A stretch of 64,000 nucleotides of DNA from Chloroflexaceae bacterium (GCA_025057155.1 JANWYD010000016.1:54056-118055), one strand, 5' to 3'. Shown: positions 12,327-64,000, numbered from the stretch's first letter. Translations and numbers: made by a program. The notes: a model not told the origin generated them from the sequence alone.

Positions 12327-12497
12327 CTCAGGTGTAGGATTTTCCGGCGCATCCTCGCGCCGCATGCGCCATCCGGGGCATTGGGACGCCCAACTTCCCC
12401 CTCTCCCGCGCGCGAGAGAGTGGAGGGGGGATGAGGACCGTAAGCGCAGTGGAATGCCGAAAACCCCTGCTCGCCCAAAAAATCCTACGCCTGAGAG
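12327..12497 (+). repeat. Family-1 element, copy B
   Basis: It has the same termini (ctcaggtgtaggattttccgg ... aaaaaatcctacgcctgagag) and the internal blocks catccggggcattgg and gtggaatgccgaaaacccc. Confidence 0.85.
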
Positions 12498-18018: not shown

Positions 18019-18035
18019 TCTCTGTTGTGCAGCTC

Positions 18036-18098
18036 GCATGTCCATCATTCCCAGGTCGCGCCGGGATGCCGTAGACATCAATCCAAAATCCGAAATAA
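18036..18098 (-). repeat. Family-5 element copy just upstream of the HAD gene
   Basis: The sequence is gcatgtccatcattcccaggtcgcgccgggatgccgtagacatcaatccaaaatccgaaat. Confidence 0.6.
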
Positions 18099-18103
18099 TA
18101 CAT

Positions 18104-18907: not shown

Positions 18908-18988
18908 AGCCAGCGGGTGCGCGGGGAAATCTGGTCTCCCCGCGCACCCTGCCCGCCGGGGGACATTTCCCGGCGCGTATCAAAGACT

Positions 18989-19468
18989 ATGAGCAAACTC
19001 AACTCCCAACGCCTGCTGGAGCGCCTCCAGGTTGCCTACACCACCCACGCCTACGCCTATGACCCCGACGATCCGCCAGACGCCGTGGAAGTTGCCCGAC
19101 GCACCGGCCTGCCGCCCGGCCAGGTCTTCAAGACCCTGGTGCTTGGCGGGGCCAGCCAGGGGCGGCCCGTGCTGGTCATGCTCCCTGCCGACCGCCAGCT
19201 CGATCTAAAGCGCTGCGCGGCCGCGTTTGGCCAGAAGCGGCTCGAACTGCTGACCCGAGCCGAAACCGAGCGCCTTACCGGGCTAAAAATCGGCGGCATC
19301 GGCGCCCTGGCCCTCACCTCCAAACGCTGGCCCTGCTACCTGGACCGCTCGGCGACGGCCTATGAGCGCATCTACGTCAATCCCGGGCAACGGGGAATCA
19401 TGCTTGGCGTGGCTGTCGCCGATCTGCTGCGGGTGCTTGGCGCCCAACTGGTGGATGTAGCGGCATAG
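18989..19468 (+). CDS. ybaK: Cys-tRNA(Pro)/Cys-tRNA(Cys) deacylase YbaK
   Basis: About 159 aa with the YbaK pattern (VFKTLVL...LPADRQLDLKRCAAAFG...TGLKIGGIGAL). Confidence 0.75.
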   Translation: MSKLNSQRLLERLQVAYTTHAYAYDPDDPPDAVEVARRTGLPPGQVFKTLVLGGASQGRPVLVMLPADRQLDLKRCAAAFGQKRLELLTRAETERLTGLKIGGIGALALTSKRWPCYLDRSATAYERIYVNPGQRGIMLGVAVADLLRVLGAQLVDVAA

Positions 19469-46168: not shown

Positions 46169-46338
46169 CTCAGGCGCAGGGTTTTTTGGGCGAGCAGGAG
46201 TTTTCGGCATTCCAATGCGCTTACGGTCCTCACACCCTGCCCCCCTCTCCCTGAGCGGGAGAGGGGGGAGTTAGGCGTCCCGATGCCCTGGATGGAGCAT
46301 GCGACGCGAGGATGTGCCGGGAAACCTTACACCTGAGA
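46169..46338 (-). repeat. Family-1 element, copy D
   Basis: The left end is ctcaggcgcagggttttttgggcgagcagg, the stem cccccctctccc tgagc gggagagggggg, and the right end gggaaaccttacacctgaga. Confidence 0.85.
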
Positions 46339-46736: not shown

Positions 46737-49700
46737 ATGACCAGCGATGAGACGGGCGCGACCGACCTGCCAGCCGATCTCAAGGCCCTGCTCGACGCCG
46801 CCGGCGTTACTGATGCGGCGTCGCTGCAACGCGCCCTGGAAAGCGACCCGCAGCTTCGCGAGCGTTTCGTAGCCTTTGTGCAGGCCCAGGTGCAGGCCCT
46901 GGGCGATGCGGTCGTTGCGGCCTTGCTTGCCGATGTGCCCGAGGACCTGCGCGCGCGCCTGGAAGCCGCTGGCGGGTCCGACCAGGCCGTCCTGCAGCAG
47001 GCCCTGGAGGCCGACGCGCAGCTAAAGGCTGATCTGAAGGCGTTCTTGGAGGCGCGTCGGACCGAGGCGCTGCCGCAAGGGCTCGACGGCTATCTGACTG
47101 CCTTCGCTGAGGTCGAGGACACGGAGCAACTGGGCCACCTGTGGATGTAGATCCCATCCGAGCTGGAGCAGCCCTTCCTCGAGGCGGTCGAGGACCGGAT
47201 CGCGCAGGCTGAACTGGCGGGCAATGCTGAGCTAGCCGAGGGGTTGCGCCAGCGCCGCGACGCGCTGCGCCAGATGCTCGGCCAGGCCCAGGCAGCCGCC
47301 GCCCGCATCGCCCAGGATGTCGCCCGTCTCGAGGCGGCAGATGACGGGCAGACAGTTGTCGCAATCTGGAACGCGATCCCGATTGAACTGGAAGAGCCGT
47401 TCCTCGACGCCGCCGAGCACCGCGCCGCCGAGCTAGGCGACGCGCCCCAGGCCGAGCGCATGCGCGCCCACGTTGCGGCTTTGCGCCAGGCTCGCCAGCA
47501 GCGCGAGGAGCTGGAGCGCCAGCCCCCGGTCGTCCGCGCGCTGCTGAGCTTCGTGTACGCCCCCGACGACGCCACGGCCCGCCAGGTCTTCGCGGCGCAG
47601 CAGGCCCTGCTCCAGCCCTACGAGGCCCAGCGCGTGGCCGATGCCCTCGCCGACCAGGCGCCCGACGAACTCCGCGAACGCTTCGCCGCCCGCGCCGCGC
47701 TGCTGCGGGAACTGCGCGGCGCCGCGCCGCAGCCGGCGCCGGTTGTGGCCCCGCCGCCCCCCGCCGGCCTGCGGGACGACTTCGGCGGGCGGTCGTTTTC
47801 GGTGCAAAATGCGACGATCGAGGGCGACCTGATCCAGGCCGCCGGCGACTACATTGACCAGACCACCATCCATCTGGTGCAACGGCGCGAATGGATCCCG
47901 CCGCCGCCGCCCTCCCCGCCCGAGGATGCGATTGACCGCCCCAAGCGCGTCGCCGAGGTGGCCAGGCTCCTTGCCGACGCCGGCACGGTGGCCATTGGCG
48001 GGCGCCTCCCTCCCCGCGTCACAGTGGCCATGCAGGGCATGGCCGGGAGCGGGCCTGCCTGGCGGCCCTCGACCAGGCCCTGGTCGCCCCGCCCGCCGAT
48101 CTCGAGGCGGCGCAGCGGGAGCTACGGAGGGGCCTCGATACCCTCCTGGCCGATGACCCGGCCCACGATTTCGTCGCGGCGCACCTGCTGCCGACCGCCG
48201 CGCGCCTGTTGCAAACGGCCCTTGTCGAAGATGAGGCCGCCTGGCGGGAGTACCACGGCCACCTGATCGCCCGCCTGGCGGCCCGCGCCGGGGAGGGGCC
48301 GGAGGGCCTGGAGACGCTGCTGGCAAAGATCGCCGATCAGGAACGGGCCCTGGCCGCCCTGCGCGCCGCGACGGAACGGTTGAACGCCCTGCTCGCCGCT
48401 GAGGGCGCCCCCGCTCCGGCCAGGTTCGAGAACCGCGATCTGGAGGTCGGCGGGGAACTGGTGCAGGCCGCCAGTGACATCACGCTGGGCCTGCCGCCCG
48501 ATCCCTCCGCCACGGCGCCCCCGCCGCGATGGCCATCCGGCCCGGTGGTTTTTCAGAATGTCGGGTTGAAAGTTAATGGGAGCGTGTACCAGAGCGGCGG
48601 AAATTTCACCCGCGCGGCCCCGGTGGAGGAGGCCACGCCCCCCGCCGCGGCCCCCGGGCCGATCACGCTCACCCTCCGGTTCACCCCCGCTTCCGGCGGG
48701 GCGCAGGTGCGCTGGCGCGCCGATGAGCTCGGCGAGTTCAGCAGCGACCTGGCCGCGCCTTACCGCGGGCGCGACCTGGCCGCGGTGCTGCGCGCCCTGG
48801 AGCGCCGCCAGCACCCGGCCTTCGCCCTGGCCGAGGGCGACGCGGAGCGCCTGCGCGCCCTGGGCCTGCTCAGCGCCGGCGGCGAACCGCTGGCCGATCT
48901 GCCGCGCCTGGTCGGGCAGGCCCTCTACGCTGCCCTGGTCCGCGAGCAGGGGCTGGCGGCCCTGGCCCTGGTCCGCAGCCAGGCCGCCCCCGCGGGCCGC
49001 CCGCTGGCCCTGCGCCTGCTGCTGCCGCCCGAGGCGGTCGAACTGGCGGCCCTGCCCTGGGAGTTGCTCTGGCCGCCGCGGGAGGGGCTGCCGCTGCTGC
49101 TCGGGGCCGCGCCGCCCGTGCTGCTTACCCGCCATCTGGACCTCGACGGGCCGCTTCCCCGCTTCGAGCCGCGCCAGGGGCGGCCCCTGCGCATCCTCTC
49201 GCTCGTGCCAGAGGTGCAGCGCGCGCCGGGGGACCTGGCGGAGACCCGGGCGCGGCTGGGCCGCCTGTGGGACGAGTTGCGCGCGCGGGGCGTGGCCGAG
49301 GCGTTTGAGGTCAGCCCGGTGACGCGGGAGGATCTGCGCCGCGCCATGGAATACCGGCCCGACATTGTGCAGTTCACCGGCCACGGCTGGTACGCCGAGG
49401 GGCGCGGCGTGCTGCTGCTCGACCCGCTGACGCCCGGCGCGCCCGCCGAGCGGGTGGAGGCTGATCGGGTGGCGGTGGCGCTGCGGGGGGCGCGCATGGT
49501 GGTGCTCGCCGCCTGCCGGGGGGCCCAGGGGGCGGGCATTGAGGGCGGGGCGGCGAGTCTGTTGACGGGGGTGGCTCCGGCGCTGAGCGCGGCGGGCGCG
49601 CCGCTGGTGCTGGGGATGCAACTCGGCATCGGCGCGGACGCGGCGCTGCGGGCCGTCGAGGCGCTCTACGCGGCCCTGGCCCGCGGCCTCGGCGCGCAGG

Positions 49701-49813
49701 CCGCGGTGGGCGAGGCCCGCGCCGCGCTCTACGTCGGCGCGCCGGAGCGGGACGCCTGGTACGTGCCGGCGCTGTATGTGCGCAGCCGCGAGGCGGGGCC
49801 GGTGGTAGTGTAG
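46737..49813 (+). pseudogene. CHAT (caspase-like protease) domain protein gene interrupted by an in-frame TAG (47148-47150) and a frame switch near 48040-48060
   Basis: Track ORFs 46737-47150 and 47244-48266 are in the same frame. The third ORF is open from 47936 and ends in a CHAT domain (IVQFTGHG...VVLAACRG). Confidence 0.7.
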
Positions 49814-49901
49814 GGGGGAAACCGGGTTTGCCCGGTTTCCCCCCCCTCCCAACCTCCCCCCAACGGAGGGAGGCGCCGAACGCCCTCCCCCGGCGGGGGC
49901 T

Positions 49902-50072
49902 CTCAGGCGCAGGGTTTTTTGGGCGAGCAGGGGTTTTCGGCATTCCAATGCGCTTACGGTCCTCACCCCCCTGCCCCACTCTCCCTGAGCGGGAGAAGGG
50001 GGAGCTGGGCGTCCCGATGCCCCGGACGGCGCATGCGACAAGAGGATGTCCGGAAAACCTCATACCTGAGAG
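49902..50072 (-). repeat. Family-1 element, copy E (closest relative of copy D)
   Basis: It shares ctcaggcgcagggttttttgggcgagcagg.gttttcggcattccaatgcgcttacggtcctcac and tccctgagcgggaga with copy D. Confidence 0.85.
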
Positions 50073-50162
50073 GTTTCCCCGCGCCCCTGCCCGGCGGGCA
50101 AGAGCTGGAACGCCGCAGACGCGCATCCGCCCGCGGGAGCGACCAGGCGCCCGTCCGGGCAT

Positions 50163-50390
50163 TCACGCCAATCGGCAGATGTAGCATTCGTGGCCGGGAT
50201 GGATCGCTCCGGTGGCGCGGACAACCGCCACGAAGCCGCCGGAGAGACCTTCGTTGTAGAAAGCGAGCGGCCGTCCCTCGGCGTCGCGCGCCTGCTCCAC
50301 GCAGGCGGCGCACACCGCCCGCGGGTAGCGCGGGTCGAAAGGCCGCGGGGCGCCGCACAGGGGGCATTCCGCCTGTGGCGTATCGTTCAT
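50163..50390 (-). CDS. hypothetical small Cys-rich (zinc-ribbon-like) protein
   Basis: CPLCG...CAAC...HECYIC, high GC3, 75 aa. The SD is weak. Confidence 0.45.
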   Translation of the reverse strand: MNDTPQAECPLCGAPRPFDPRYPRAVCAACVEQARDAEGRPLAFYNEGLSGGFVAVVRATGAIHPGHECYICRLA

Positions 50391-51912: not shown

Positions 51913-51975
51913 AGGGGAGAGCATTCCAGGAGCAATAGGTTTGCTCCGCTCGGCACGCCCCTCTCCGAACCTCTT

Positions 51976-52147
51976 CTCAGGTATAGGGTCTTTCGGGCGA
52001 GCAGGGGTTTTCGGCATTCCAATATGCTTACGATCTTCACCCCCCCGCCCCCCGCTCCCGCGCGCGGGAGCGGGGGGCGCTGGGCGTCCCGATGCCCCGG
52101 ATGGCGCATGCTCGCGTCGCAGGCGCCGGAAAACCCTACACCTGAGA
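51976..52147 (-). repeat. Family-1 element, copy F
   Basis: The central perfect palindrome is gccccccgctcccgcg/cgcgggagcggggggc, with the typical termini. Confidence 0.85.
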
Positions 52148-52250
52148 ACTCCCACCCTCCCCCGCCGGGGGCAGGAGCCAGGACCTCGCTCTCCCGGCGG
52201 CTACGTTACCCGCACGTACCGCGCGTCCCGAACGCTGTTCCGCTTTCACC

Positions 52251-53828
52251 TCAGAGCTTGACCTTGCCCAGCTCGCTCTCCAGACGCTGGGCGACGGTGC
52301 GCAGCACCTTGATGCGGGCGAAGTATTTGTCCTCGGCCTCGACGATGGTCCAGGGGGCGGCGGGGGTGGAGGTGCGGAGGAGCATTTCATCGGCGGCGGC
52401 TTCGTAGAGCGGCCACTTCTCGCGGTTGCGCCAGTCCTCGGCGGTGAGCTTCCAGGCCTTGTAGGGCACGTTCCGGCGGGCCTCGAAGCGGCGCAGTTGC
52501 TCCTCGGGGCTGATGTGCATCCAGAACTTGCAGATGATCGTACCGAAATCAATCAACTGGCGCTCGAACTCGTTGATCTCGAGATAGGCGCGCCGCCACT
52601 CGTCGGGACGGGCGAAGCCCTCGACGCGCTCGACGAGCACGCGTCCGTACCAGGAGCGGTCGAAGATGGCGAACTGCCCGCGCGGCGGCAGACGCCGCCA
52701 GAAGCGGTAGAGGTAGTGCCGCACCTTGTCCTCGCCGGTAGGCGCGGCGATGGAGTGGACGATGTAGCTGCGCGGGTCAAGCTCGGCGGTCAGGCGCTGG
52801 ATGGCGCCACCCTTGCCGGCGGCGTCCCAGCCCTCGAAGACGATGACCGCCGGGCGCTTCTGGTAATAGAGTTGCAATCCGAGCAGATGCAGGCGAGCCT
52901 GGAGCTGCTTGAGTTCGCGACTGTAGCGTTTCTCGTCTATGCGCAGGCTGAGGTCCACCCGTTTGAGGATGCCGGGGATGGGTTGCTGGATGGGCGCAGA
53001 GTTGTGGACCACCAGCGTATCGTGGGACGGATCGCGCAGGGGCAGGTGGTTGCGCTCGCGAAAGGCACCGCTGGCGACATCAGGGCCCTGGGACTGGGCG
53101 GAGCGGGCCAGGACGACGGCGCGCCGCCCCAGGCGCGCCTCCAGGGTGGCGATCACGGCCTGGAACATTGCTACGCGGGCGTAGTACTTGTTGTTGGCGG
53201 GAATGACGTGCCACGGCGCGGCAGGCGCGTTGGTGCGCGCCAGCATATCCTCGACCGCCGCGGCGTACTCTTCGTAATGGCGGTGTTGCCAGCGGTCCTC
53301 GTCGGTGACCTGGTAGGCGGTCAGAGGGTTGGCGGTGAGGCGCTCGAAGCGGCGGCGCTGTTCCTTCTTGGAGATGTGCAGCCAGAGCTTGATGATCTCG
53401 GCCCCGTCGTCGGCCAACTGGCGCTCCATGGTCACCACATCTTCGCAGCGCTGCCGCCAGCGCGCCGTGTCGCCGCCGCGCACGCGCTCGGCGAGCATCT
53501 CGCGATACCACGAGCGGTCGAACACGGCGATCTCGCCGTAGGCGGGGAGCTTCAGCCAGAAGCGATAGAGCCAGGGGTACTGCTGCTCGTGGGTGCGCGG
53601 CGGGGTTATGGGGTGCACCCGCAGGCCCCGCGGGTCGAGCCGGCTGGAGAGCACGCTGATGGTGCGGACCTTGGCCGTTCCCGCCCACCCCTCGAAGATG
53701 ATCAGGACGGGAACGCCCGCCTCCAGCACGGCCTGCTCCATGTCGAACAGGCGCGCCTGCAACTCGGGCAGAGCCTGGCGGTACTCGCGCTTGCTCAACG
53801 CCAGGGTGAGGTCAATCTGGTCCAGCAT
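52251..53828 (-). CDS. two-domain polyphosphate kinase 2 (polyphosphate:AMP phosphotransferase-like)
   Basis: There are two tandem PPK2 modules. The second has FEGWDAAGKGG and the first has the altered FEGWAGTAKV. Both have the DRSWY block. Confidence 0.88.
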   Translation of the reverse strand: MLDQIDLTLALSKREYRQALPELQARLFDMEQAVLEAGVPVLIIFEGWAGTAKVRTISVLSSRLDPRGLRVHPITPPRTHEQQYPWLYRFWLKLPAYGEIAVFDRSWYREMLAERVRGGDTARWRQRCEDVVTMERQLADDGAEIIKLWLHISKKEQRRRFERLTANPLTAYQVTDEDRWQHRHYEEYAAAVEDMLARTNAPAAPWHVIPANNKYYARVAMFQAVIATLEARLGRRAVVLARSAQSQGPDVASGAFRERNHLPLRDPSHDTLVVHNSAPIQQPIPGILKRVDLSLRIDEKRYSRELKQLQARLHLLGLQLYYQKRPAVIVFEGWDAAGKGGAIQRLTAELDPRSYIVHSIAAPTGEDKVRHYLYRFWRRLPPRGQFAIFDRSWYGRVLVERVEGFARPDEWRRAYLEINEFERQLIDFGTIICKFWMHISPEEQLRRFEARRNVPYKAWKLTAEDWRNREKWPLYEAAADEMLLRTSTPAAPWTIVEAEDKYFARIKVLRTVAQRLESELGKVKL

Positions 53829-54222: not shown

Positions 54223-54230
54223 GCGAGGTT

Positions 54231-54403
54231 CTCAGGTGGAGAGTTTTCCGGCGCATCCTCGGCTCGCATGCGCCATCCGGGGCATCGGGACGCCCAGCGC
54301 CCCCCGCTCCTGCGCGCGGGAGCGGGGGGCAGGGGGGTGAGGACCGTAAGCGCATGGGAATGCCGACAACCCCTGCTCGCTCGAAAAACCCCACACCTGA
54401 GAG
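54231..54403 (+). repeat. Family-1 element, copy G
   Basis: The left end is ctcaggtggagagttttccggcgcatcctcgg, the stem ccccccgctcc tgcgcgc gggagcgggggg, and the right end cgaaaaaccccacacctgagag. Confidence 0.85.
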
Positions 54404-54499
54404 GAGCACTACCCGCATCCTGGGCGGAAAACAGGCGAACGCGGCGACCGGGCAAGGGCCGGTTTGCCGCGTTCTGATGCGGGCATTAACTATCAGATG

Positions 54500-54967
54500 T
54501 TACCGAAACAGGGGCGAATCAGGAAACCGTCGGTGGAGCCGGCCATCGAGGCCGAACCAGTGCCCGGAGGGAGTGGCCATCAGCAAAAGCGCGACGACGA
54601 AGAACGGGGGCATCGAGGCATTGTAGTAGGAGCCAGCGGTGATGTTGCTGATCAGAAACAGGGCCAGGGCGGCGTTGGGGCGGACGGCCAACCCCAGCAG
54701 CATGCCCAGGGCCACGCTCACCTGGCCCAGGGTCAACACCCAGGCCACCGGGCGATGCCAGGGAATGGCAAAGTATTTGAGGTAGGCCGCCGAGAAGGAG
54801 TGGGGATCAATCTCGCTGAGGCGCCGCTCGAAGTGCTCGCGCATCACGGTGCTCGTCAACCAGCCGCGGGTGATTTTGTGGTACGCGCCGTAGAGGAAGA
54901 CGGCGCCGAAACCGTAGCGTAGGGCCACCACCGTGCCCTTCGCCAGTTGCCGCACGCGCGGGTTCAT
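54500..54967 (-). CDS. DoxX family membrane protein
   Basis: A 155-aa protein with 4 TM segments and a DoxX-like layout. Confidence 0.55.
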   Translation of the reverse strand: MNPRVRQLAKGTVVALRYGFGAVFLYGAYHKITRGWLTSTVMREHFERRLSEIDPHSFSAAYLKYFAIPWHRPVAWVLTLGQVSVALGMLLGLAVRPNAALALFLISNITAGSYYNASMPPFFVVALLLMATPSGHWFGLDGRLHRRFPDSPLFR

Positions 54968-55084: not shown

Positions 55085-55807
55085 TCACCCCTCGCCGAAA
55101 TTGCCGGCCACCAGTTCGGCCAGGGCGGCAACTGCGGCGCCGGCGTCCTCGCCCTCGGCGCGGACGTGCACCCGGTGGCCGGAGAGCACGCCGAGTTTCA
55201 TGACGTCGAGGATGCTCCGGGCATCTCCAACGGGGCGATCAGGGCGGTCGAGGTTGCGCACGCGGATGGCGCAGGGGAACCGGGCGGCGGTCTGCACGAA
55301 TTCGCTGGCCGGGCGCATATGCAGCCCGACCTTGTTGGTGACGGTCAGGGTCGCCTCGACGACAGGGGCATCGGGCGGATCGGGGGGATCAGCGGGGCCA
55401 CCCGGAGCAACTGGCGGGGACACGTCCAGGCCCTTGGCTTCGAGGGCCCGGGTGGCCGCGGCGGCCACGCCGGCCAGGTCCGCTCCCGGACGGCTGGCCT
55501 CGACCGCCGCCAGCACCGCCCCCTCGACCAGCGGCGCGCCGCTGATCAGGTAGGGCATCCCTGCCGCTTCCAGGGCCATCTCGGTGCTCAGTACGGCGCT
55601 GCCCAGGTCCACCAGGGCCAGAATGCCCTCTACGCCGCGCAGGGTCTCGATCGCCGCGGCGATCAGATCCACCGAGGTGCCCAGCGAGCCGTCGTGGGCG
55701 CCGCCAGCGGCAGCGATGGGCGTCCGGCCCCGGGCCATCTGCCCGGCCAGGACCTGCACGCCATGGGCCACTTCCGGACTGTGGGAGACGATCAGGATGC
55801 CGATCAT
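55085..55807 (-). CDS. dhaM: DhaM-like PTS phosphocarrier: EIIA(Man)-like domain fused to an HPr domain
   Basis: MIGILIVSHSPEVAHGV resembles E. coli DhaM MVNLVIVSHSS. The C-terminal HPr domain has NKVGLHMRPAS. SD AGGAG precedes the ATG at 55807. Confidence 0.8.
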   Translation of the reverse strand: MIGILIVSHSPEVAHGVQVLAGQMARGRTPIAAAGGAHDGSLGTSVDLIAAAIETLRGVEGILALVDLGSAVLSTEMALEAAGMPYLISGAPLVEGAVLAAVEASRPGADLAGVAAAATRALEAKGLDVSPPVAPGGPADPPDPPDAPVVEATLTVTNKVGLHMRPASEFVQTAARFPCAIRVRNLDRPDRPVGDARSILDVMKLGVLSGHRVHVRAEGEDAGAAVAALAELVAGNFGEG

Positions 55808-55977: not shown

Positions 55978-56622
55978 CTACAACAACCCCAGCTTCCCGG
56001 CGACATAGACCACCTCGGCCCGGTGGTGGACATTGAGCTTTCGCATGATATTTCTAAGATGAAATTTAACGGTGCTTTCACTGATGGCGATCTGTTCGCC
56101 GATCTCGCGGTTGGAGAGACCGCAGGCCAGCAGGCGCATGACCTGTTGTTCGCGTTCGGTAAGCAGGGTCTCCCGCGATTCGCCGGGATTGGAGAGACTT
56201 TTCATCACCAGCGAGGCGGTGCGGGTGTCGAGGGCCGACTCGCCGCGATGGACGGCGCGCACGCTCTTGATCAGATCGAAAGCGTCCACGTCTTTCAGCA
56301 CGTAACCGCGGGCGCCGCTGCGGATGGCCCGCAGCACAAGCTGGTCGTCGAGGAAGGTGGTGAGCACAATTACGTTGGTCTGCGGATAGTCGGCGCAGAT
56401 GCTCTGGCACAATTCGAGGCCGCCCTCCACTCCCTGAGCGCCAAGGCTGAGGTCGAGGAGCACCACATCGGGATGTTCCTGAGCGATCAGGGCCAGGGCC
56501 GTACACGCGTCGCCCGCCTCGCCGACCACTATGATGCCCGGCTCCAATTCGAGGATTGAGCGCAGGCCATGACGCACAATGGCATGGTCGTCCACGATCA
56601 TCAGCCGAATGGGGTTGCTCAT
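55978..56622 (-). CDS. NarL/FixJ-family response regulator (REC plus LuxR HTH)
   Basis: IRLMIVDDHAIV, VVLLDLSL and LTEREQQVMRLLACGLSNREIGEQIAISESTVKFH. SD AGGAGGG precedes the ATG at 56622. Confidence 0.9.
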   Translation of the reverse strand: MSNPIRLMIVDDHAIVRHGLRSILELEPGIIVVGEAGDACTALALIAQEHPDVVLLDLSLGAQGVEGGLELCQSICADYPQTNVIVLTTFLDDQLVLRAIRSGARGYVLKDVDAFDLIKSVRAVHRGESALDTRTASLVMKSLSNPGESRETLLTEREQQVMRLLACGLSNREIGEQIAISESTVKFHLRNIMRKLNVHHRAEVVYVAGKLGLL

Positions 56623-56745: not shown

Positions 56746-58074
56746 CTACCCCGGCAGATCCTGAAGCGGGACGACGACCCGCACCTCGGTTCCGCCGCCG
56801 GGGGGGCGGAGAATGGTCAGCGCGCCGCCCAGTTCCTGGACCCGTTCGCGCATATTGCGCAAGCCGAAGTGGGCCGCGGCGCCCTCGGCCGCGGCGGCGC
56901 TCAGGGCCTCGTCGGGAATGCCCACCCCGTCATCGGCGACCACCAGGTGCGCGGCGCCGGCATCGAAGCGCAGGGCAATGGTGATCTGCCGGGCGCGCGC
57001 GTGCTTGTAGGCATTGAACAACGCCTCCTGCGCAATGTAGTACAGCCCGCTGGCAAGCTGGACGCTCACCATAGGCGGTACGTCCGCCGTCTGCAATTGT
57101 ACGCTCAAATTGGTAGTCTTCTCAAAATCAATCGTCAGTTCTCGCAGAGCCGCCACCAGGCTCGACGGCGCGCCATTGGACCCGTTGATCGGTGAGAGCT
57201 GGAAAATCGTCGCGCGCATGCGGGTGACGGCGCTGCGGGCCATCTCCTTGGCATTGCAGATGCGCTCGTAGACCGGCGACTGAGGATCGAGTTGCACCCG
57301 GCACCACTCCAGGTTCATGCCGATGCTGATCAGGTGCTGGGCGACGCTATCGTGCAGGTCGCGGGCGATGCGGGCGCGTTCGCTGTTGAGGATCTCGTTC
57401 TGGCGGGCGGCGGCCAGGCGGTGGCGGGCCTTGGCGAGCTGGCGGTTCTTCTCCTCCAGTTCGGTCTTCTGGCGCAGGGCGTCTTCGTAGAGCGCCAGGG
57501 CCTGCGCGCGCAGACGTTCGCTCTCTTCGTACAGGCGAGCATTCTCCACCGCCACGGCGGCCTGGTTGGCCAGGGTGCGCAATACCGAGAGTTCGCGCTC
57601 GTCCATCGTAAAGCCAGCCTGCAGCGCCACCACCAGTGCGCCGACTACCTGGTCGCTCAGCAGCATCGGCGCGCCGAGGACGCGCGTCCCGGCCCCGGCT
57701 TCACGTATCACCAGGGTTTGCTGGCCCAGCACCTGGGTGATCGCGCCTTCGATCTCAGCCAGATCCGCGACGGCGTTAAGCGGCTCGACGCCGCGGGCAG
57801 TGCGGCGCATCCCCCAGCGGGCGGCCTCCGGCGCATGCAGCACCAGCACAGCCAGGGAAGCGTCGAAGTGCTGCAAGGCCACCTCGACCACCGCCTGGGC
57901 CAGGCACCCGACGCCCCGGGTGGTATTGCACAGGGCGCCGGAGATCATCGCCACCGAGGCGATGGCCCGGTCGAGCCGGCGTTCGTTCTCGCGGTACTCG
58001 CTGTAGTAGGTGCGGCGAGAGGCGCTTACACCGATCAGGCTCTCCAACAGATGCTCGCGCGCGCTGTCTTCCAT
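56746..58074 (-). CDS. cytoplasmic GAF-domain sensor histidine kinase (HisKA_3/NarX-type)
   Basis: There is no TM segment. A GAF-like N-terminal half is followed by the H-box ARDLHDSVAQHL, the N-box EALFNAYKHA and the G-box DDGVGIP...GLRNMRERV. Confidence 0.88.
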   Translation of the reverse strand: MEDSAREHLLESLIGVSASRRTYYSEYRENERRLDRAIASVAMISGALCNTTRGVGCLAQAVVEVALQHFDASLAVLVLHAPEAARWGMRRTARGVEPLNAVADLAEIEGAITQVLGQQTLVIREAGAGTRVLGAPMLLSDQVVGALVVALQAGFTMDERELSVLRTLANQAAVAVENARLYEESERLRAQALALYEDALRQKTELEEKNRQLAKARHRLAAARQNEILNSERARIARDLHDSVAQHLISIGMNLEWCRVQLDPQSPVYERICNAKEMARSAVTRMRATIFQLSPINGSNGAPSSLVAALRELTIDFEKTTNLSVQLQTADVPPMVSVQLASGLYYIAQEALFNAYKHARARQITIALRFDAGAAHLVVADDGVGIPDEALSAAAAEGAAAHFGLRNMRERVQELGGALTILRPPGGGTEVRVVVPLQDLPG

Positions 58075-58083
58075 ACCACGACC

Positions 58084-59232
58084 TCACATTGCCGCGTAGA
58101 ACAACTGCATCACCGCCTCGACGCTCGCCTCGCGCGGGTTGGTGGCCATGCAGGCATCGTGCATGGCATTGGCGCTCAGGGTGGGCAGGTCCTGCTCCCG
58201 CACGCCGAGGTCAGACAGGCGCTTGGTCAGCCCCACATCGGCGATCAGGGCGCGCACGGCCTCGATGGCCATGGCTCCGGCCTCCATCGGCGTCAGGCCC
58301 GCGACGGGCAGCCCCATGGCCTCGGCAATGGTCGCATAACGCTCCGGACAGGCGGGCAGGTTGTACTCCATCACCGTCGGCAGCAGAATGGCGTTCAGTT
58401 CGCCGTGGGGCTGGTCGAGCAACCCGCCGACCTGGTGGGCCATGGCGTGGGTTGCCCCCAGGATGGCGTTGGAGAAGGCCATGCCGGCGTGGAGGCTGCT
58501 GCGGGCCATGATCTCCTTCGCCTCCAGATCGGTCTGGCTGGCGACGGAGCGCCGCAGCCCGGCGACGGCAAGGGAGATGGCACGCAGGGAGTGAACTTCG
58601 GTGAGAAAGGTGGCCGCGAGGGAGACGTAGGACTCGATGCCGTGGGTCAGAGCATCCATGCCGGTGCTGGCGGTAAGCCAGGCATCCTTGGTGGTGAGCA
58701 ACAGCGGGTCAGTGAGCGAGATATCGGGGATGAGCGACTTGCTGATCAGCGTCATCTTGATGCGCCGGCGGGTGTCGGTAATCACCGCGAACTGGGAAAC
58801 ATCGGCCCCGGTGCCAGCGGTGGTGGGAATAGCGACCATCGGCGGCAGCGGCCGGGTGATGCGGTCAATGCCCTCGTAGTCGTGGATGCGACCGCCGTTA
58901 GTGCTGAGCACCGCGATGCCCTTGGCGGCGTCAATGCAACTGCCGCCGCCAAGGGCCACCAGCGCGTCGCAGCGTTGCGCCCGGTAGAAGGCGGCCCCCG
59001 CTTCGACCTCGTGGTCCTTGGGATTGGGAGTCACCCCGGTCCAGATCGCAAAATCAAGGCCCTCTTGCTCGATAACCGGAAGCATCTGTTCGAGCCAGCC
59101 GGCGGCGATGATGCCGGGATCGCTGACCACCAGCACCCGGGTGGCGCCGAGCCGCCGCGCAGCCTTGCCCGCCTGCTCAAGCACGCCGCAACCTACAATA
59201 ATTTCGGGAAGGGTAAACTTGCAAACCTGCAT
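58084..59232 (-). CDS. iron-containing (group III) alcohol dehydrogenase, 1,3-propanediol/lactaldehyde reductase-like
   Basis: GGGSCIDAAKG, PTTAGTGADVS and HGIESY...HAMAHQVGG. Its stop lies 9 nt before the kinase start. Confidence 0.88.
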   Translation of the reverse strand: MQVCKFTLPEIIVGCGVLEQAGKAARRLGATRVLVVSDPGIIAAGWLEQMLPVIEQEGLDFAIWTGVTPNPKDHEVEAGAAFYRAQRCDALVALGGGSCIDAAKGIAVLSTNGGRIHDYEGIDRITRPLPPMVAIPTTAGTGADVSQFAVITDTRRRIKMTLISKSLIPDISLTDPLLLTTKDAWLTASTGMDALTHGIESYVSLAATFLTEVHSLRAISLAVAGLRRSVASQTDLEAKEIMARSSLHAGMAFSNAILGATHAMAHQVGGLLDQPHGELNAILLPTVMEYNLPACPERYATIAEAMGLPVAGLTPMEAGAMAIEAVRALIADVGLTKRLSDLGVREQDLPTLSANAMHDACMATNPREASVEAVMQLFYAAM

Positions 59233-59608
59233 ACAAGCCGTCCTGGCCGGGCGATGTGCCGGGGCGGATCAGCTCCCGTTCGTCACCGGGAGACCTGACC
59301 CTGGGAGTTTCCCCCCAATCGAAAGCGTCCAACACGATCGCGTGCGCGCGACGCCGCGCCTGCTCCCTGAGTTGCCTGGGTTGACCGGGTATAACCTGGA
59401 TTATAGGTTTTTTCCCTTCCCCTGTCTAGTTGGACAGGGGGATATTCTCACCGGTCGTTGAGGAAAGGTTTGCACGGTCAGTGGGTGACAGAGGGGCAGC
59501 GTATCTGCTACAGTCCAGACTACCCAGATCTACCACAAATGCAGCGTGATCCGATGCGGCGCCGGCGGGCGTAGTGTATCGCGTGGCGCACGAGCGAAGG
59601 AGGTTCGT

Positions 59609-59782
59609 ATGGAAGGCTCCCCGACCGCCCTGGAGGAGTTGGAAGCAGGCGCGGAGATCCTGGCGGAGGCTGATGCGGTTGACGGGCTTGAGACGCCCCT
59701 GGCGGACGTGGACGCGCCGGAGATCCTGGCCGAACTGGTGGTCGAAGAAGTGAGCATTGACGGGATGTGTGGCGTGTATTGA
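59609..59782 (+). CDS. mftA: mycofactocin precursor peptide MftA
   Basis: The 57-aa product ends in EEVSIDGMCGVY-stop, the MftA C-terminal signature. SD GAAGGAGG lies 5 nt upstream. Confidence 0.85.
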   Translation: MEGSPTALEELEAGAEILAEADAVDGLETPLADVDAPEILAELVVEEVSIDGMCGVY

Positions 59783-59809
59783 GGCGCGAACGGGTCGTCG
59801 AAAGAATTC

Positions 59810-59828
59810 GGGAGGGCTGCGCCCTCCC
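59810..59828 (+). terminator. family-6 hairpin gggagggctgcgccctccc, 28 nt after the mftA stop (possible attenuator)
   Basis: A 7-8-bp GC stem with no U-tract, lying between mftA and the SDR gene. Confidence 0.35.
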
Positions 59829-59880
59829 AGAAGCATCCTCATCTCATACCGTGCAGCGCAGAAGAAACTGGTGCGATACG

Positions 59881-60699
59881 ATGCAGCGACTCGAAGGTAA
59901 AGTTGCTCTGATCACCGGCGCGGCCCGCGGTCAGGGGCGGGCGCATGCCCTGACCCTGGCCCGCGCAGGGGCCGACATCGCGGCCCTGGACATCTGCCGC
60001 GATCTGCCGTACCCGCGCTACCACCTGGCAACCCCTGAGGATCTGGAGGTGACGGCGGCGGAGGTGCGCGCCCTGGGCCGCCGCTGTCTGAGCCTGATCG
60101 CCGATGTGCGCAGCGCCGCCGAGATGGAGGCGGCGGTGCAACAGACCATTGACGCCTTCGGGCACATTGACATCCTGATCTGCAACGCTGGCGTCGCCGA
60201 TATGGCCATGACCTGGGACATCACCGAGGAGTGGTGGGACATCATGCTCGATGTCAACCTGAAGGGCGCCTGGCTGGCAATCAAGTATGTGGTGCCCCAC
60301 ATGCTGGAGCGCGGGAAGGGCGGGCGCATCGTGATCACCTCGTCGGTGGCGGGGCTGAAGGGGATGGCCGGGCTGGCCCATTACTGCGCGGCGAAGTGGG
60401 GCGTGGTGGGCCTGGCGCGCAGCCTGGCGATAGAAGTGGCCCACGCCGGCATTACGGTTAATACCATTCATCCGACGGGAGTGGATACGCCGCTGATTGC
60501 CGGGATGGCCCGCGCCGCCGGCATGCTCCGCCAGGAACTGGTTGACCAGCTACGCGAGGACAATCTGTTGCCCGTGGCCCTGGTAGACCCGCAGGACATC
60601 GCCAATGCCGCCCTGTGGCTGGTCTCCGACGAGGCGCGCTACGTTACCGGCCTGGAGCTTAAAGTTGACGCGGGCCAGATGATCAAGTGCCCGGCCTAG
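59881..60699 (+). CDS. mycofactocin-coupled SDR family oxidoreductase (carveol dehydrogenase-like subfamily)
   Basis: GKVALITGAARGQGRAHA matches the subfamily N-terminal signature as I recall it. The catalytic motifs are SS...YxxxK (HYCAAK). Confidence 0.8.
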   Translation: MQRLEGKVALITGAARGQGRAHALTLARAGADIAALDICRDLPYPRYHLATPEDLEVTAAEVRALGRRCLSLIADVRSAAEMEAAVQQTIDAFGHIDILICNAGVADMAMTWDITEEWWDIMLDVNLKGAWLAIKYVVPHMLERGKGGRIVITSSVAGLKGMAGLAHYCAAKWGVVGLARSLAIEVAHAGITVNTIHPTGVDTPLIAGMARAAGMLRQELVDQLREDNLLPVALVDPQDIANAALWLVSDEARYVTGLELKVDAGQMIKCPA

Positions 60700-60861
60700 A
60701 GCATTTCTCAGAAAGGTTGATGCAGAGGCGCGACGGTGCAACGTGTTCCTGGTAGTGATGCCAGCCTTTGCGGTATTGCATCCTACCGGTCACGGATGGT
60801 CGGGAAGCCTCTGTTCAGGGCAGGCGAGAAATGCTGTAGCCGGCGAAGAGGCAGGCAGCCG

Positions 60862-61182
60862 ATGGAACTGACCGCGATCTACCGGCTCGCGCCATACGCC
60901 GCCCTGCGGGCCGAGCGCTTCGGCGGGTTGATCTACCGGTATGACAACCGCCGGTTATACTTTCTGCACGCGCCCGAGCTGGTTGGCCTGTTGAACATCC
61001 TGGACGGCAACGTGACCCTGGGCGCGGCGCTCGAGGCGATAGGCGCGCCCGAGCCGGCCCGTGGACGCTACATCCGCGCCCTGGCGCAGCTCGAGAGCCT
61101 GGGCGTGATCGTCAGGATCACAGCGGAGGACTCCCAACCACCTGCTCCGTCCGCCGTTACGGCAAGGAGCGCGCTGGCCTGA
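60862..61182 (+). CDS. mftB: mycofactocin biosynthesis chaperone MftB (PqqD-like RRE)
   Basis: YRLAPYAALRAERFGGLIYRYDNRRLYFLHAPELVGLL matches the MftB pattern. About 106 aa. Confidence 0.7.
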   Translation: MELTAIYRLAPYAALRAERFGGLIYRYDNRRLYFLHAPELVGLLNILDGNVTLGAALEAIGAPEPARGRYIRALAQLESLGVIVRITAEDSQPPAPSAVTARSALA

Positions 61183-61208
61183 TCGCCGCTGAGCGGGAGA
61201 GGGCTGCC

Positions 61209-61877
61209 ATGGAAGACGCCGATCCTCACCAGGCGAACACCCCGACGCGCATCGTCATCGCCGATGACTTTGAACTGGTGCGCATCGGGTTGTGTACGGT
61301 GTTGAAGGCCGAGCCGGATATGAGCGTCGTGGGGGTGGCGAGCGATGGTCAGGAGGTGGTGGACCTGTGCGTCCGGCTGCGACCCGATGTGGCCATCCTT
61401 GATGAACGCATGCCCGTGCTTGGAGGGATCGAAGCAGCGCGGCGGATCAGGCCGCTGGGAACGCGGGTGATCGTCCTTTCGCCCCTCGGCGAGCGGCTGG
61501 ATCAGGCGCGCATGGCCCGCTACGGGCTGGACGGCTGGCTGCTCAAGAACATCAGCCGCGCCGCCCTGGTCGAGGCGGTGCGCCAGGTGCGCCAGGGCCA
61601 GACGTTGATCAGCGCGCCTGATGAGGCGTCGCGCCTCAACCAGATCTACAGCCCCACGCCGCCTGTTCCGGAGACGCTGACCCCGCGCGAACTGGATGTT
61701 CTGCGCCTGCTGGCGCGGGGCAAGACCAACGCTGAGATTGCCAACGATCTGGCCCTCAGTCGCGGCACCGTGAAGGCGTATGTTGAGCAGATAATCGCCA
61801 AATTGCACGTCAGCGGGCGCACCCACGCCGCCGTGCGGGCCGTTGAGATGGGGTTGCTGCGTATGGCCGATGAGTGA
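61209..61877 (+). CDS. NarL/LuxR-family response regulator
   Basis: IVIADDFELVR, VAILDERMP and LTPRELDVLRLLARGKTNAEIANDLALSRGTVKAY. SD is GGGAGAGGG. Confidence 0.9.
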   Translation: MEDADPHQANTPTRIVIADDFELVRIGLCTVLKAEPDMSVVGVASDGQEVVDLCVRLRPDVAILDERMPVLGGIEAARRIRPLGTRVIVLSPLGERLDQARMARYGLDGWLLKNISRAALVEAVRQVRQGQTLISAPDEASRLNQIYSPTPPVPETLTPRELDVLRLLARGKTNAEIANDLALSRGTVKAYVEQIIAKLHVSGRTHAAVRAVEMGLLRMADE

Positions 61878-61879
61878 TG

Positions 61880-61945
61880 CGATTTTGGATTTTGGATTGC
61901 CTTTTATGGCGTCTTGATGAGACGTGAGGATGGGGCGATTCCGGA
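61880..61945 (+). repeat. Family-5 element (octamer end first) starting 3 nt after the regulator stop
   Basis: cgattttggattttggattgcc is the exact reverse complement of 63782-63803, and similarity continues for ~45 nt. Confidence 0.85.
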
Positions 61946-62063
61946 GGGGCGCGCCTTCTCAGCCGCGACCGCTTCCGAAAAGACCGGCGGGGCGCCCTGG
62001 TTTCCGCATATGCTGGAAGCAGTAATTATGACGCGGTGCGAAATAGATTTCGACGTAAAATAC

Positions 62064-62107
62064 CTGCCATATGGCAGTAGGCAAAACTTTTCACTATTAA
62101 CTATACT
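62064..62107 (+). promoter_or_regulatory. 14-bp perfect palindrome (ctgccatatggcag) abutting a candidate promoter (TAGGCA, 18 nt, TATACT)
   Basis: The palindrome is at 62064-62077, the -35-like box at 62078-62083, and the -10-like box at 62102-62107. This is the AT-richest patch of the mno leader. Confidence 0.35.
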
Positions 62108-62383
62108 CTAACCGCCCTGTTAAGCGTTCGCAATTCCACGACCTCGACCTTATAACGCAAGGTTGCGCCACATAGCCGTTGGGGATCGAGTTTCCCAGGG
62201 ATGTGTATTATGCTCTCCCGTCTGGCCAGCGGGAGCTGGTTCGATAACACCCGGCGCCGGGGTTCGGTCTCTCCGTGCGGAGAGACCGGTTCGCAAGCCA
62301 GATCTGGCGAGATCCCGATGAGGGGGTGTCCGGGCGGGCGCCTGGCCTTGCCCACCGCCGCTTGAACAAAGGAGTCAAGACGA

Positions 62384-63655
62384 ATGGAAGCGCACAAGCT
62401 CTGGCAGTTCCCGATTAAGGAGTTCCACCCGTTCCCACGCGCGCTGATCGGTCCGGGGGCTTATGAGATGGTTGGCGTCGAGGCGAAGAAGCTCGGCTTC
62501 AAGCGCACCCTGCTGATGACCTCGGGCATCCGCGGCACCGACCTGGTGGAGGACGTCGCGGGCAAGCTCCGCTACCAGGGCATTGATGTGGTGATCTACG
62601 ATAAGGTCGAGTCGAACCCCAAGGACTATAACTGCATGGAGGCCGCTGACCTCTTCATGCGCGAGAAGTGCGATAGCTTCGTTTCCGTCGGCGGCGGGAG
62701 CGTGACCGACGCGACCAAGGGCGCGCGTCTGGTGGTCGCCCACGATGGGCGTCACATCAATGAGTTCGACGGTTTCAACAAGTCGGACCCCGACCGCCAG
62801 AAGAACCCGCCCCACATCGCCATCAACACCACCGCCGGCACCGGATCGGAGACGAGCTGGGCTTTCGTGATCACCGACACCACCTCCGAGCGCGCCCCGC
62901 GCAAGTGGCTGGGCTTCGACGACAGCTGCATCGTCACCCTGGGGATCAACGACCCTTATGTGTTCAAGACGATGCCGCAGGATCTGACCGCCTTCTGTGG
63001 CTTCGACGTGCTGGCCCACGGCTCGGAGCCGTATGTCTCGCGCCTCGACTTCCCCGCCAGCCTCGGCAGCGCCCTGAAGTGCATCGAGCTGGTGGCCCAG
63101 AATCTGCGCGAAGTGGTCGCCAACCGCAACAACTTCGAGGCCTGGACCAACATGGTCTGGGCGCAGTACATCGGCGCGCAGGCCTTCAATAGCGGCGGCC
63201 TGGGCATCATTCACTCGATCTCCCACGCCGTCAGCGCTTACTACGACACGCACCACGGCCTGAACAATGCCATCGCCCTGCCGCGGGTCTGGGAGTTCAA
63301 CCTGCCGTCGAACTACCGGCGCTACCGCGACATCGCCCGCGCCATGGGCGAGAAGGTGGACGGGCTGAGCGACGTGTCGGCTGCCGAGCGCGCGGTCGAG
63401 GCCGCCATCCGCCTGGCCAAGGACGTGGGCATTCCGCCGAACTTCAAGAGCATCGGCGAGTACAGCAAGTCGCGCCTGGGCAAGGGCATCTACGAGAAGT
63501 GGTGCGGCCCGCGCATCGTCGGCGATGACAACGACGTAGACCGCGTCTCCAAGCACGTTCTCGGCGACGGCTCGACCCCCGGCAACCCGCGCGAAGTGAC
63601 CTACGAGTCAGTCTGGCCGGTAGTGGCCCACGCTATGCGCGAGTCGTACTACTAG
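62384..63655 (+). CDS. mno: NDMA-dependent methanol dehydrogenase-like (Mno/Mdo/ThcE-type) group III alcohol dehydrogenase
   Basis: WQFPIKEFHPFPRALIG, YDKVESNPKDYN, NEFDGF, TTAGTGSETSWA, FDVLAHGSEPYVSRLDF, FNSGGLGIIHSISHAVSA and TPGNPREVT closely track actinobacterial Mno as I remember it. Confidence 0.8.
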   Translation: MEAHKLWQFPIKEFHPFPRALIGPGAYEMVGVEAKKLGFKRTLLMTSGIRGTDLVEDVAGKLRYQGIDVVIYDKVESNPKDYNCMEAADLFMREKCDSFVSVGGGSVTDATKGARLVVAHDGRHINEFDGFNKSDPDRQKNPPHIAINTTAGTGSETSWAFVITDTTSERAPRKWLGFDDSCIVTLGINDPYVFKTMPQDLTAFCGFDVLAHGSEPYVSRLDFPASLGSALKCIELVAQNLREVVANRNNFEAWTNMVWAQYIGAQAFNSGGLGIIHSISHAVSAYYDTHHGLNNAIALPRVWEFNLPSNYRRYRDIARAMGEKVDGLSDVSAAERAVEAAIRLAKDVGIPPNFKSIGEYSKSRLGKGIYEKWCGPRIVGDDNDVDRVSKHVLGDGSTPGNPREVTYESVWPVVAHAMRESYY

Positions 63656-63719
63656 GCGGCATCCTCCGGGGAGCGCGGGAAGGGCCTGGCCCCTCCCGCC
63701 TCCCCTCACCCTGGCATAC

Positions 63720-63803
63720 CAGTTCCTGTTGATAGAGAGTGCATGCCCATTATCGCCAGGTCTCATCGGGACGCCAGATACGGCAATCCAAAATCCAAAA
63801 TCG
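63720..63803 (-). repeat. Family-5 element upstream of the MoxR gene
   Basis: The sequence is cagttcctgttgatagagagtgcatgcccattatcgccaggtctcatcgggacgccagatacggcaatccaaaatccaaaatcg. Confidence 0.85.
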
Positions 63804-63847
63804 TAACAGGTTCCATCGCCGCCCTTCAGCACACGGAGCAGACGCCA

Positions 63848-64000
63848 GTGTTTGAAACCATTGACCAGGTGGTGACCCTCCTGCGCCAGCAGCGCTACAT
63901 CTGCGACCGCAAGCTGGCGACGGTGATCTTCCTCGCCCTCAAGATGAACAAGCCGGTGCTGATCGAGGGGCCGGCGGGAGTCGGTAAGACCGAACTGGCC
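63848..64000 (+). CDS. MoxR-family AAA+ ATPase (N-terminal 51 codons; continues beyond the window)
   Basis: My own translation from the GTG at 63848 gives VFETIDQVVTLLRQQRYICDRKLATVIFLALKMNKPVLIEGPAGVGKTELA. GGAG lies ~9 nt upstream. Confidence 0.75.
   Translation, partial: MFETIDQVVTLLRQQRYICDRKLATVIFLALKMNKPVLIEGPAGVGKTELA

Follow-up and report, generated by a model that had tools for sequence, protein, structure and literature searches.

A probable mycofactocin and alcohol-oxidation gene cluster of Chloroflexaceae with a flavoprotein redox module among the maturation genes

We considered a stretch of 64,000 nucleotides from a Chloroflexaceae bacterium (GCA_025057155.1, JANWYD010000016.1:54056-118055; the whole stretch is called 'the window' below), which ends within a group of genes for mycofactocin, a peptide-derived cofactor. 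Taken together with the sequence that follows the window end, this region is very likely the left third of one ~27-kb cluster for mycofactocin synthesis and alcohol oxidation, in which three known modules are fused: (i) mycofactocin biosynthesis, with mftA, mftB, mftC, mftE, mftF and an MftM-like methyltransferase; (ii) a module of the Mno type, as in Mycobacterium smegmatis, with mno, MadB, MadC, a second iron-type alcohol dehydrogenase (Fe-ADH), a GAF-domain kinase and a NarL-type regulator; (iii) a redox module, with two Fe-S flavoproteins of the FadH/old yellow enzyme (OYE) type, the electron-transfer flavoprotein (ETF) subunits EtfA and EtfB, FixC and FixX. Existing curated models would annotate the locus almost fully; what is unusual is that MftD, MftG and a TetR-type MftR are absent from every cluster of this type visible end to end, that OYE/ETF/FixCX genes stand amid the maturation genes and that NarL-type regulators are embedded in the cluster.

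Genes of the window were identified by listing open reading frames over 50-64 kb and by scanning the candidates against NCBIfam profile models with curated cut-offs; Pfam domains were read from the called genes of an identical public contig, L001 (JAVQYK010000016.1 of GCA_033583995.1, 101.8 kb), which was found by a look-up of the Mno protein. All genes named in the original prediction, made from the window sequence alone, are present where it had placed them and on the strands it had given (Table 1), and the order mftA-SDR-mftB-regulator-mno (SDR, short-chain dehydrogenase/reductase), with the SDR gene between mftA and mftB, is indeed non-canonical. The mftA product ends with EVSIDGMCGVY, the core peptide being identical in relatives. 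The reading of the third gene as mftB had been staked on the MftB model, and its product passed that model with a score well above the cut-off. The gene that follows, for an orphan response regulator (RR2), begins 26 nt past mftB, and the two are probably co-transcribed. RR2 is 34% identical to the MadR-like regulator of the divergent operon; at this position after mftB it is kept only in five of the related loci described below, L005-L008 and L010.

MftC, MftD, MftE and MftF are not encoded within the 64-kb window. The original prediction implied that the maturation genes are missing or lie elsewhere; the region would then be a partial or rearranged island with no mft genes but mftA and mftB beside the client dehydrogenases, either a fragment left by duplication or a satellite that depends on another locus. 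The observation is true inside the window, but the conclusion fails just past its edge. The last 1001 bases of the window are identical in L001, which runs on past 64000 with madB, madC, an mftM-like methyltransferase gene, mftC, two OYE2 genes and etfA, all on the same strand. The MftC radical SAM/SPASM maturase (L001 15135-16187) scores 612.3 bits against TIGR03962 (cut-off 265), so that a genome with no mftC, another outcome that had been envisaged, can be set aside. As the window stops 3.5 kb short of mftC, the absence of this gene from it is an edge effect only. For mftC the partial island is thus already refuted, relatives with the same gene order carry mftE and mftF further along, and we regard this alternative as very improbable.

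Directly 3' of mftC lie two paralogues of FadH/OYE oxidoreductase 2 (OYE2), with 804.9 and 980.3 bits against TIGR03997 (cut-off 793.15). Other products of the cluster beyond the window have best matches below curated cut-offs: the MadC-like VWA protein of L001 (NF047783, 206 bits with a cut-off of 600, full-length alignment), the MftM-like methyltransferase of L001, linked to mno (NF041255, 167 with a cut-off of 200), EtfA (a mycofactocin-associated ETF model, 178 with a cut-off of 240) and EtfB (a mycofactocin-specific model, 176 with a cut-off of 200).

One could suspect the interleaved gene order to be an artefact of assembly or binning, since the source assembly is of the metagenome-assembled genome (MAG) type and interspersed repeats are found nearby. 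We consider such mis-assembly hardly conceivable because L002, an independent read-level (Logan) assembly of a sequencing run, has a gene order identical to that of L001. The same order is also present in three other MAGs (L005-L007) and in the more distant relatives L008 and L010, and the GC content is even, at 0.62-0.65, across the island and its flanks, junctions included. The loci L002 and L005-L007 argue against a chimeric contig as well, and in this way against the partial island.

Relatives were collected by an MftC scan with one genome per GTDB species, which gave 80 loci (a sample biased towards kin of the window-genome MftC), and gene order was determined by tblastn with window proteins. 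L005-L007, with MftC 94-96% identical, are Chloroflexaceae/Chloroflexales MAGs from different projects; their order matches from the Fe-ADH gene through etfA and then proceeds to fixC, fixX, etfB, mftE and a methyltransferase-mftF fusion. The L006 MftE scores 179.6 bits against TIGR03964 (cut-off 172); MftF is seen as partial tblastn matches at the ends of L006 and L007, and the L005 contig ends after the methyltransferase domain of the fusion. L008 and L010 (78-86% identity) keep mftA-SDR-mftB-regulator-mno and the following genes. The right end is visible in L085, an extension of the L008 contig from a more distant Chloroflexaceae relative: mftE (185.9 bits; cut-off 172) is followed by a gene for a 746-aa methyltransferase-MftF fusion (TIGR03965, 418 bits; cut-off 280), a small SCO4226-like protein gene and a second radical SAM/SPASM gene, after which unrelated genes begin. 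The genome's own sequence was read as far as etfA, and the cluster past etfA is inferred from these relatives. At least five Chloroflexales genomes keep the layout, and Proteobacteria share its core; the 'rearranged analogue in a non-actinobacterial background' of the original prediction is a genuine mycofactocin locus of Chloroflexaceae, though not a one-off.

The block mno-madB-madC-methyltransferase-mftC-OYE2-OYE2-etfA-fixC-fixX-etfB-mftE-mftF was found in ~50 loci of Competibacteraceae, Defluviicoccus, other Rhodospirillales and Geminicoccaceae. Measured against the window-genome proteins, identities (MftC, 73-81%; Mno, 71-78%; OYE2b, 74-82%) are high for a comparison across phyla, which suggests horizontal transfer of the block between phyla. 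The complete genome of Defluviicoccus vanus (CP053923) has mno-madB-madC-methyltransferase-mftC-OYE-OYE-etfA-fixC-(fixX)-etfB-mftE-mftF-mftA-SDR-mftB, where the cluster stops. Because the triad mftA-SDR-mftB recurs there, it is a conserved unit itself; in Chloroflexaceae it is located on the 5' side and has gained the response regulator.

Some variation of the cluster content was seen as well. In L012 (4884-6152; Chloroflexaceae MAG H113_106) Mno is 90% identical, with MadB at 74%, MadC at 50% and MftC at 80%, and there is no mftA, SDR, mftB or regulator gene 5' of mno; this pattern hints at recombination inside the cassette. In L087 (4735-5847) and L088 (4792-5904), with EtfA 92% identical, mftC and the first OYE2 gene are separated by an inserted gene for a zinc-type alcohol dehydrogenase (370 aa), while the same junction is uninterrupted in L001 and L089; client genes thus come and go at strain level. 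The 93-aa SCO4226-like protein (PF14026) is recurrent in mycofactocin clusters (L085 16650-16931, L091 16988-17269, L083 7393-7662, also ~18 Competibacter loci, e.g. L023 9656-9925); its gene follows mftF in Chloroflexales and Rubrobacter and stands directly 5' of mftC in Competibacteraceae. The second radical SAM/SPASM gene of L085 (16934-18193) has a tungsten-cofactor oxidoreductase maturase as best match (287 bits; cut-off 380). In L091, a Chloroflexales metagenome contig, the cluster closes with genes for an aldehyde dehydrogenase and a DUF779 protein (17330-19459), which fits full oxidation of alcohol to acid.

MftD was searched for by tblastn with the protein of the Rubrobacteraceae locus L021, which has the classical run mftC-mftD-mftE-mftF. 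The window, L001 and all of the ~55 loci of the OYE2/ETF type gave no match, nor did the three clusters visible end to end (L085, L090 and L091); in relatives the search covered ~10-15 kb around mftC, and MftD or MftG could be encoded elsewhere in these genomes. MftD was present only in six loci of the Rubrobacter/Dormibacterota type, all of them lacking OYE2 and ETF. The Pfam families FMN_dh, GMC and TetR did not occur among the called genes of L085, L090 and L091 (Pfam records are lacking for several genes of L090), nor TetR and GMC among those of L001. The PROSITE signature of GMC proteins, the family of MftG, was not seen in the window or the key loci, a weak test with no positive control. 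The claim that the cluster has no TetR-type MftR and carries two NarL-type regulators was right.

As no MftD was found in clusters of the same type, completeness of the pathway is unproven, and one has to consider a different end product. Synthesis could stop at the amine 3-amino-5-[(p-hydroxyphenyl)methyl]-4,4-dimethyl-2-pyrrolidinone (AHDP) or at a glycosylated form of it; alternatively, the redox-active keto-amide could be made by another enzyme, e.g. an OYE flavoprotein that passes electrons to ETF and needs no oxygen. Such an outcome would agree with the confinement of MftD to loci without OYE2 and ETF and with its absence from the end-to-end clusters, that of D. vanus included. The OYE2 proteins belong to a family of FMN/4Fe-4S/FAD enzymes which, along with FadH and naphthoyl-CoA reductase, includes amine dehydrogenases (trimethylamine and histamine dehydrogenase), and trimethylamine dehydrogenase donates electrons to ETF. 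On the other hand, the same OYE families exist in Rhodococcus and Frankia, which have MftD, and the search for MftD was confined to the vicinity of mftC. The flavin-linking cysteine of trimethylamine dehydrogenase appears to be absent from OYE2 (judged by eye against the motif), and the top PDB matches of OYE2 are naphthoyl-CoA reductase and FadH, not amine dehydrogenases. MftD was, besides, described as 'not universal' among mycofactocin species already by Haft (2011, PMC3023750). On balance, we take a different end product to be improbable. An amine-dehydrogenase-like identity of OYE2 was set aside because of the PDB ranking, and is kept as a low-probability rival only.

The FixC and FixX proteins are of the ETF:quinone oxidoreductase type. 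By the simplest reading, the OYE2/ETF/FixCX module ties the mycofactocin pool to quinone or NAD(P), a task performed by MftG in mycobacteria. A study of MftG (eLife 2025) found that 25% of MftC-encoding genomes have no MftG and called its replacement an open question; the supplement lists D. vanus, Thermomicrobium, Sphaerobacter and Rubrobacter among organisms without MftG. Since D. vanus carries a cluster of the same type and is on that list, the module is a concrete candidate for the MftG replacement. One could speculate, at most, that an OYE2 protein takes over the MftD role too.

Transcribed divergently from mftA is an operon which had been described as Fe-ADH/GAF-kinase/NarL/DhaM/DoxX. 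All five genes are present; of the labels, 'DoxX' is only approximate, since the product matches MauE in Pfam and no NCBIfam model. The Pfam domains of the DhaM-like product are EIIA-man and PTS-HPr. MadB, MadC, MadS and MadR are each the best match, aligned over full length, and each score is under its cut-off; therefore we treat these proteins as distant homologues with like architecture and context, not as equivalogs. The Mad-type parts and the second Fe-ADH are all encoded within 10 kb of mno.

Table 1. Genes and putative regulatory elements of the mycofactocin region of the window (scores in bits)
Feature	Position	Strand	Evidence
Small membrane protein, MauE/DoxX-like, last gene of the divergent operon	54500-54967	-	Pfam PF07291 MauE; no NCBIfam match
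DhaM-like phosphocarrier, EIIA(Man)-type domain and HPr fusion	55085-55807	-	TIGR02364, 102.6 (cut-off 98.25); TIGR01003 HPr, 73.9 (47.9)
NarL/LuxR-type response regulator	55978-56622	-	Best match MadR NF047785, 285.4, E 2e-85 (cut-off 300); Response_reg and GerE
Cytoplasmic GAF-HisKA_3-HATPase sensor kinase	56746-58074	-	Best match MadS NF047786, 285, E 1e-84, full profile (cut-off 500)
Iron-type alcohol dehydrogenase	58084-59232	-	Best match ErcA NF041833, 492 (cut-off 550)
Divergent control region	59400-59440	.	Inverted repeat CCCTGTC-TAGTTG-GACAGGG at 59420-59439
Promoter-like site 5' of mftA	59485-59514	+	GTGACA-18-TACAGT, extended TG; flanks conserved
mftA, mycofactocin precursor, 57 aa	59609-59782	+	TIGR03969, 49.2 (cut-off 25); Pfam PF23709 MftA
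Mycofactocin-coupled SDR subfamily 1	59881-60699	+	TIGR03971, 355.8 (cut-off 300); nicotinoprotein client
mftB, precursor-binding chaperone	60862-61182	+	TIGR03967, 79.7 (cut-off 33); Pfam PF26520
RR2, orphan NarL/LuxR response regulator	61209-61877	+	Generic NarL-family matches only (NCBIfam)
Perfect 14-bp palindrome CTGCCATATGGCAG (62064-62077) abutting a TAGGCA-18-TATACT promoter-like site, 5' of mno	62064-62107	+	
GC-rich structured leader, promoter to mno ribosome-binding site	62211-62332	+	Hairpins, each then GGTTCG
mno/mdo, N,N-dimethyl-4-nitrosoaniline-dependent methanol/alcohol dehydrogenase, mycofactocin-linked	62384-63655	+	TIGR04266, 649.7 (cut-off 625), end-to-end alignment
madB-like MoxR-type AAA ATPase, 5' end only, cut by the window end	63848-64000	+	MadB NF047784, 369 (cut-off 475), from L001

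Blocks conserved among the four closest genomes, amid DNA diverged by indels, occur in both of the long intergenic regions. On the minus strand, the Fe-ADH operon has a strong promoter-like site (59428-59400, TAGACA-17-TATAAT, 11/12 matches), and the inverted repeat of the divergent control region overlaps its -35 hexamer; the repeat is invariant in the window and L005-L007 bar one spacer base, the surrounding region having diverged with indels. The palindrome 5' of mno is a candidate activator site for a NarL-type regulator, a role that its placement fits; its counterpart in L010 is CTGCCAAATGGCAG, and no second copy was found in the window or L001. No single operator motif common to both regions could be defined, as the palindrome of the divergent region differs in half-site spacing and the sequences are unlike. 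Conservation of the structured leader of mno extends to the four closest genomes and, in part, to L008; the minimum free energy of the leader is -63.4 kcal/mol (z = -2.3), a few compensatory changes are seen, and the search of Rfam was negative, both for 59000-64000 at E up to 1 and window-wide at gathering thresholds. This leader could act as a cis-regulatory RNA, or else consist of palindromes to which proteins bind. Situated 27 nt past the mftA stop, ahead of the SDR gene, is a GC-rich hairpin, GGGAGGGC-TGC-GCCCTCCC (59809-59829); there is no T-run behind it on the sense strand, and it may stabilise the precursor transcript or cause its partial termination.

From these elements one can sketch how the cluster might work. 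The GAF kinase, possibly with the ErcA-like Fe-ADH, would sense alcohol, aldehyde or redox state and phosphorylate the MadR-like regulator and perhaps also RR2; the regulators would act at the inverted repeat of the divergent region and at the palindrome of the mno promoter, and the long operon from mno to mftF would then be turned on. MftB and MftC are expected to modify the C-terminal Val-Tyr of MftA, MftE to free the core, and MftF with the methyltransferase to glycosylate and methylate it. Mno and the SDR, as nicotinoproteins with bound NAD(P), would oxidise alcohols and deliver the electrons to mycofactocin, with MadB and MadC acting presumably as a chaperone pair for maturation or activation of Mno; the OYE/ETF/FixCX module would connect the mycofactocin pool with quinone or NAD(P).

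Several points weigh against the interpretation of the region as part of one complete cluster. In this lineage mftE and mftF were seen in close relatives only, the genome's own contig having been followed to etfA. MadB, MadC, MadS, MadR, MftM and the two mycofactocin ETF families (mft_etfA, mft_etfB) are best matches, yet all of them are below curated cut-offs, and the lack of MftD extends over the window, L001 and every cluster of the type. The steps of regulation and electron flow are all inference, and the two candidate operators are unlike in sequence.

The rest of the window has a different character. Housekeeping genes (EF-G, PGK, PRK and others) occupy 24-45 kb and, near 6-12 kb, UvrA and a Na/H exchanger are encoded; neither part yielded any mft gene. 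Base composition gave no sign of a recent acquisition of the island, the GC content being uniform over island and flanks. A GC-rich interspersed repeat of ~180 nt has six copies (6004-6032, 12448-12476, 46188-46216, 49900-50061, 51971-52149, 54228-54406), where chance would give none; every copy seen is intergenic, and at the island's left edge one lies just 3' of the MauE/DoxX-like gene. Between two copies of the repeat, flanking the island, there is a gene for a two-domain PPK2 (52251-53828, minus strand; TIGR03708 polyphosphate:AMP phosphotransferase, 617.7 bits, cut-off 547.65). The stretch 48000-50200 reaches a GC content of 0.76, and its only long open reading frames, on both strands, have low-complexity Arg/Pro/Gly-rich translations.

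Mycofactocin biology was worked out almost wholly in mycobacteria; the present locus exhibits another architecture, one that is widely shared: cofactor synthesis, Mno with its helpers of the MoxR and VWA types and an electron outlet based on ETF are encoded together, without MftD, MftG and MftR. Put together, the observations allow a more far-reaching idea, which we offer tentatively and would not favor over its opposite: OYE2-OYE2-EtfA-FixC-FixX-EtfB may be the missing link in the ~25% of mycofactocin genomes that have no MftG, re-oxidising mycofactocinol and sending electrons through ETF to the FixCX-type ETF:quinone oxidoreductase and on to the respiratory chain; one OYE2 may replace the O2-dependent MftD step; and the genes from mno to mftF may form an alcohol-oxidation cassette, complete in itself, that moved between Chloroflexota, Alphaproteobacteria and Gammaproteobacteria. 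The D. vanus genome is complete and, by its strain designation (Ben 114), appears to come from a cultured isolate. The cluster type is frequent in Competibacter and Defluviicoccus, glycogen-accumulating organisms that abound in wastewater treatment plants; alcohol oxidation there may therefore depend on mycofactocin.

In the literature searched we found no description of the integrated architecture, its spread across phyla or the lack of MftD, MftG and MftR in the cluster, and nothing relevant either about the 'Mad' names or about mycofactocin in Competibacter, Defluviicoccus or Chloroflexaceae. Some parts of the locus have known parallels. In the ErcS'/ErcA system of Pseudomonas aeruginosa an Fe-ADH-like protein and a neighbouring cytoplasmic sensor kinase control ethanol oxidation that depends on pyrroloquinoline quinone. 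The locus may be analogous in having an Fe-ADH gene beside that of a cytoplasmic kinase and a peptide-derived cofactor, here mycofactocin; the kinase architecture differs, and the Fe-ADH falls short of the ErcA cut-off. With the mycofactocin FadH/OYE and ETF families of NCBIfam (TIGR03996/TIGR03997, NF038209, TIGR04503) the agreement is partial: both OYE proteins pass TIGR03997, whereas EtfA and EtfB do not reach their cut-offs, and the genes stand here between mftC and mftE, accompanied by fixC and fixX.

The mycofactocin system was defined by Haft (2011, PMC3023750), who listed SDR, zinc-type and Fe-ADH clients, noted its presence in some Chloroflexi and found MftE and the TetR regulator, along with MftD, 'not universal'. 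The locus shares with the canonical mftR-mftABCDEFG cluster (M. tuberculosis Rv0691c-Rv0697) the IDGMCGVY core of MftA; MftA, MftB and MftC, and in relatives MftE and MftF, pass identical models, and SDR and Fe-ADH nicotinoprotein clients are associated with both. The order differs from the canonical one: mftA-SDR-mftB-regulator-mno-madB-madC-methyltransferase-mftC-OYE2-OYE2-etfA-fixC-fixX-etfB-mftE-mftF (past etfA, from relatives). The canonical MftD, GMC-type MftG and TetR-type MftR have no counterparts in the cluster, NarL-type regulators being in TetR's place; in Chloroflexaceae relatives MftF is fused to a methyltransferase domain, and the host belongs to Chloroflexota. The original prediction was right in calling the order non-canonical; the truly non-canonical traits, the OYE/ETF/FixCX module and the lack of MftD and MftG, lay outside its view.

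The parallel it had drawn, to the M. smegmatis mno gene, the two-component system MnoSR and the 1,3-propanediol dehydrogenase, proved right in its parts (PMC11303327, PMC6529628). The operon MSMEG_6242-6236 encodes Mno, an AAA-5 ATPase, a K07161 protein, 1,3-propanediol dehydrogenase, MnoS, a hypothetical protein and the NarL-type MnoR, all genes being MnoSR-dependent (PMC11303327); MSMEG_6236-6242 responds to ethanol, and MSMEG_6242 (Mno/Mdo) needs mycofactocin (PMC6529628). In genomes with mdo, mftM co-occurs in 99% (PMC9679996). Both loci have an Fe-ADH of the Mno-type decameric class, a MoxR/AAA-5 ATPase, a VWA (K07161) protein, a second Fe-ADH, a kinase and a NarL-type regulator, for which, in the case of MnoR, NCBIfam matches point to the MadR family; the Fe-ADH of the divergent operon occupies the place corresponding to the 1,3-propanediol dehydrogenase MSMEG_6239. 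Both also have a palindrome 5' of mno; in M. smegmatis MnoR binds one palindrome, 137 bp 5' of the gene. Unlike in M. smegmatis, the genes for Fe-ADH, kinase and regulator form here a separate divergent operon, to which DhaM-like and MauE-like genes are appended, and an extra orphan regulator gene follows mftB. Furthermore, mno-madB-madC are located here between mftB and mftC, whereas in M. smegmatis mno is at a distant locus. The divergent operon and mno-madB-madC-methyltransferase are thus the counterpart of the mycobacterial mno locus, physically merged with the mft genes.

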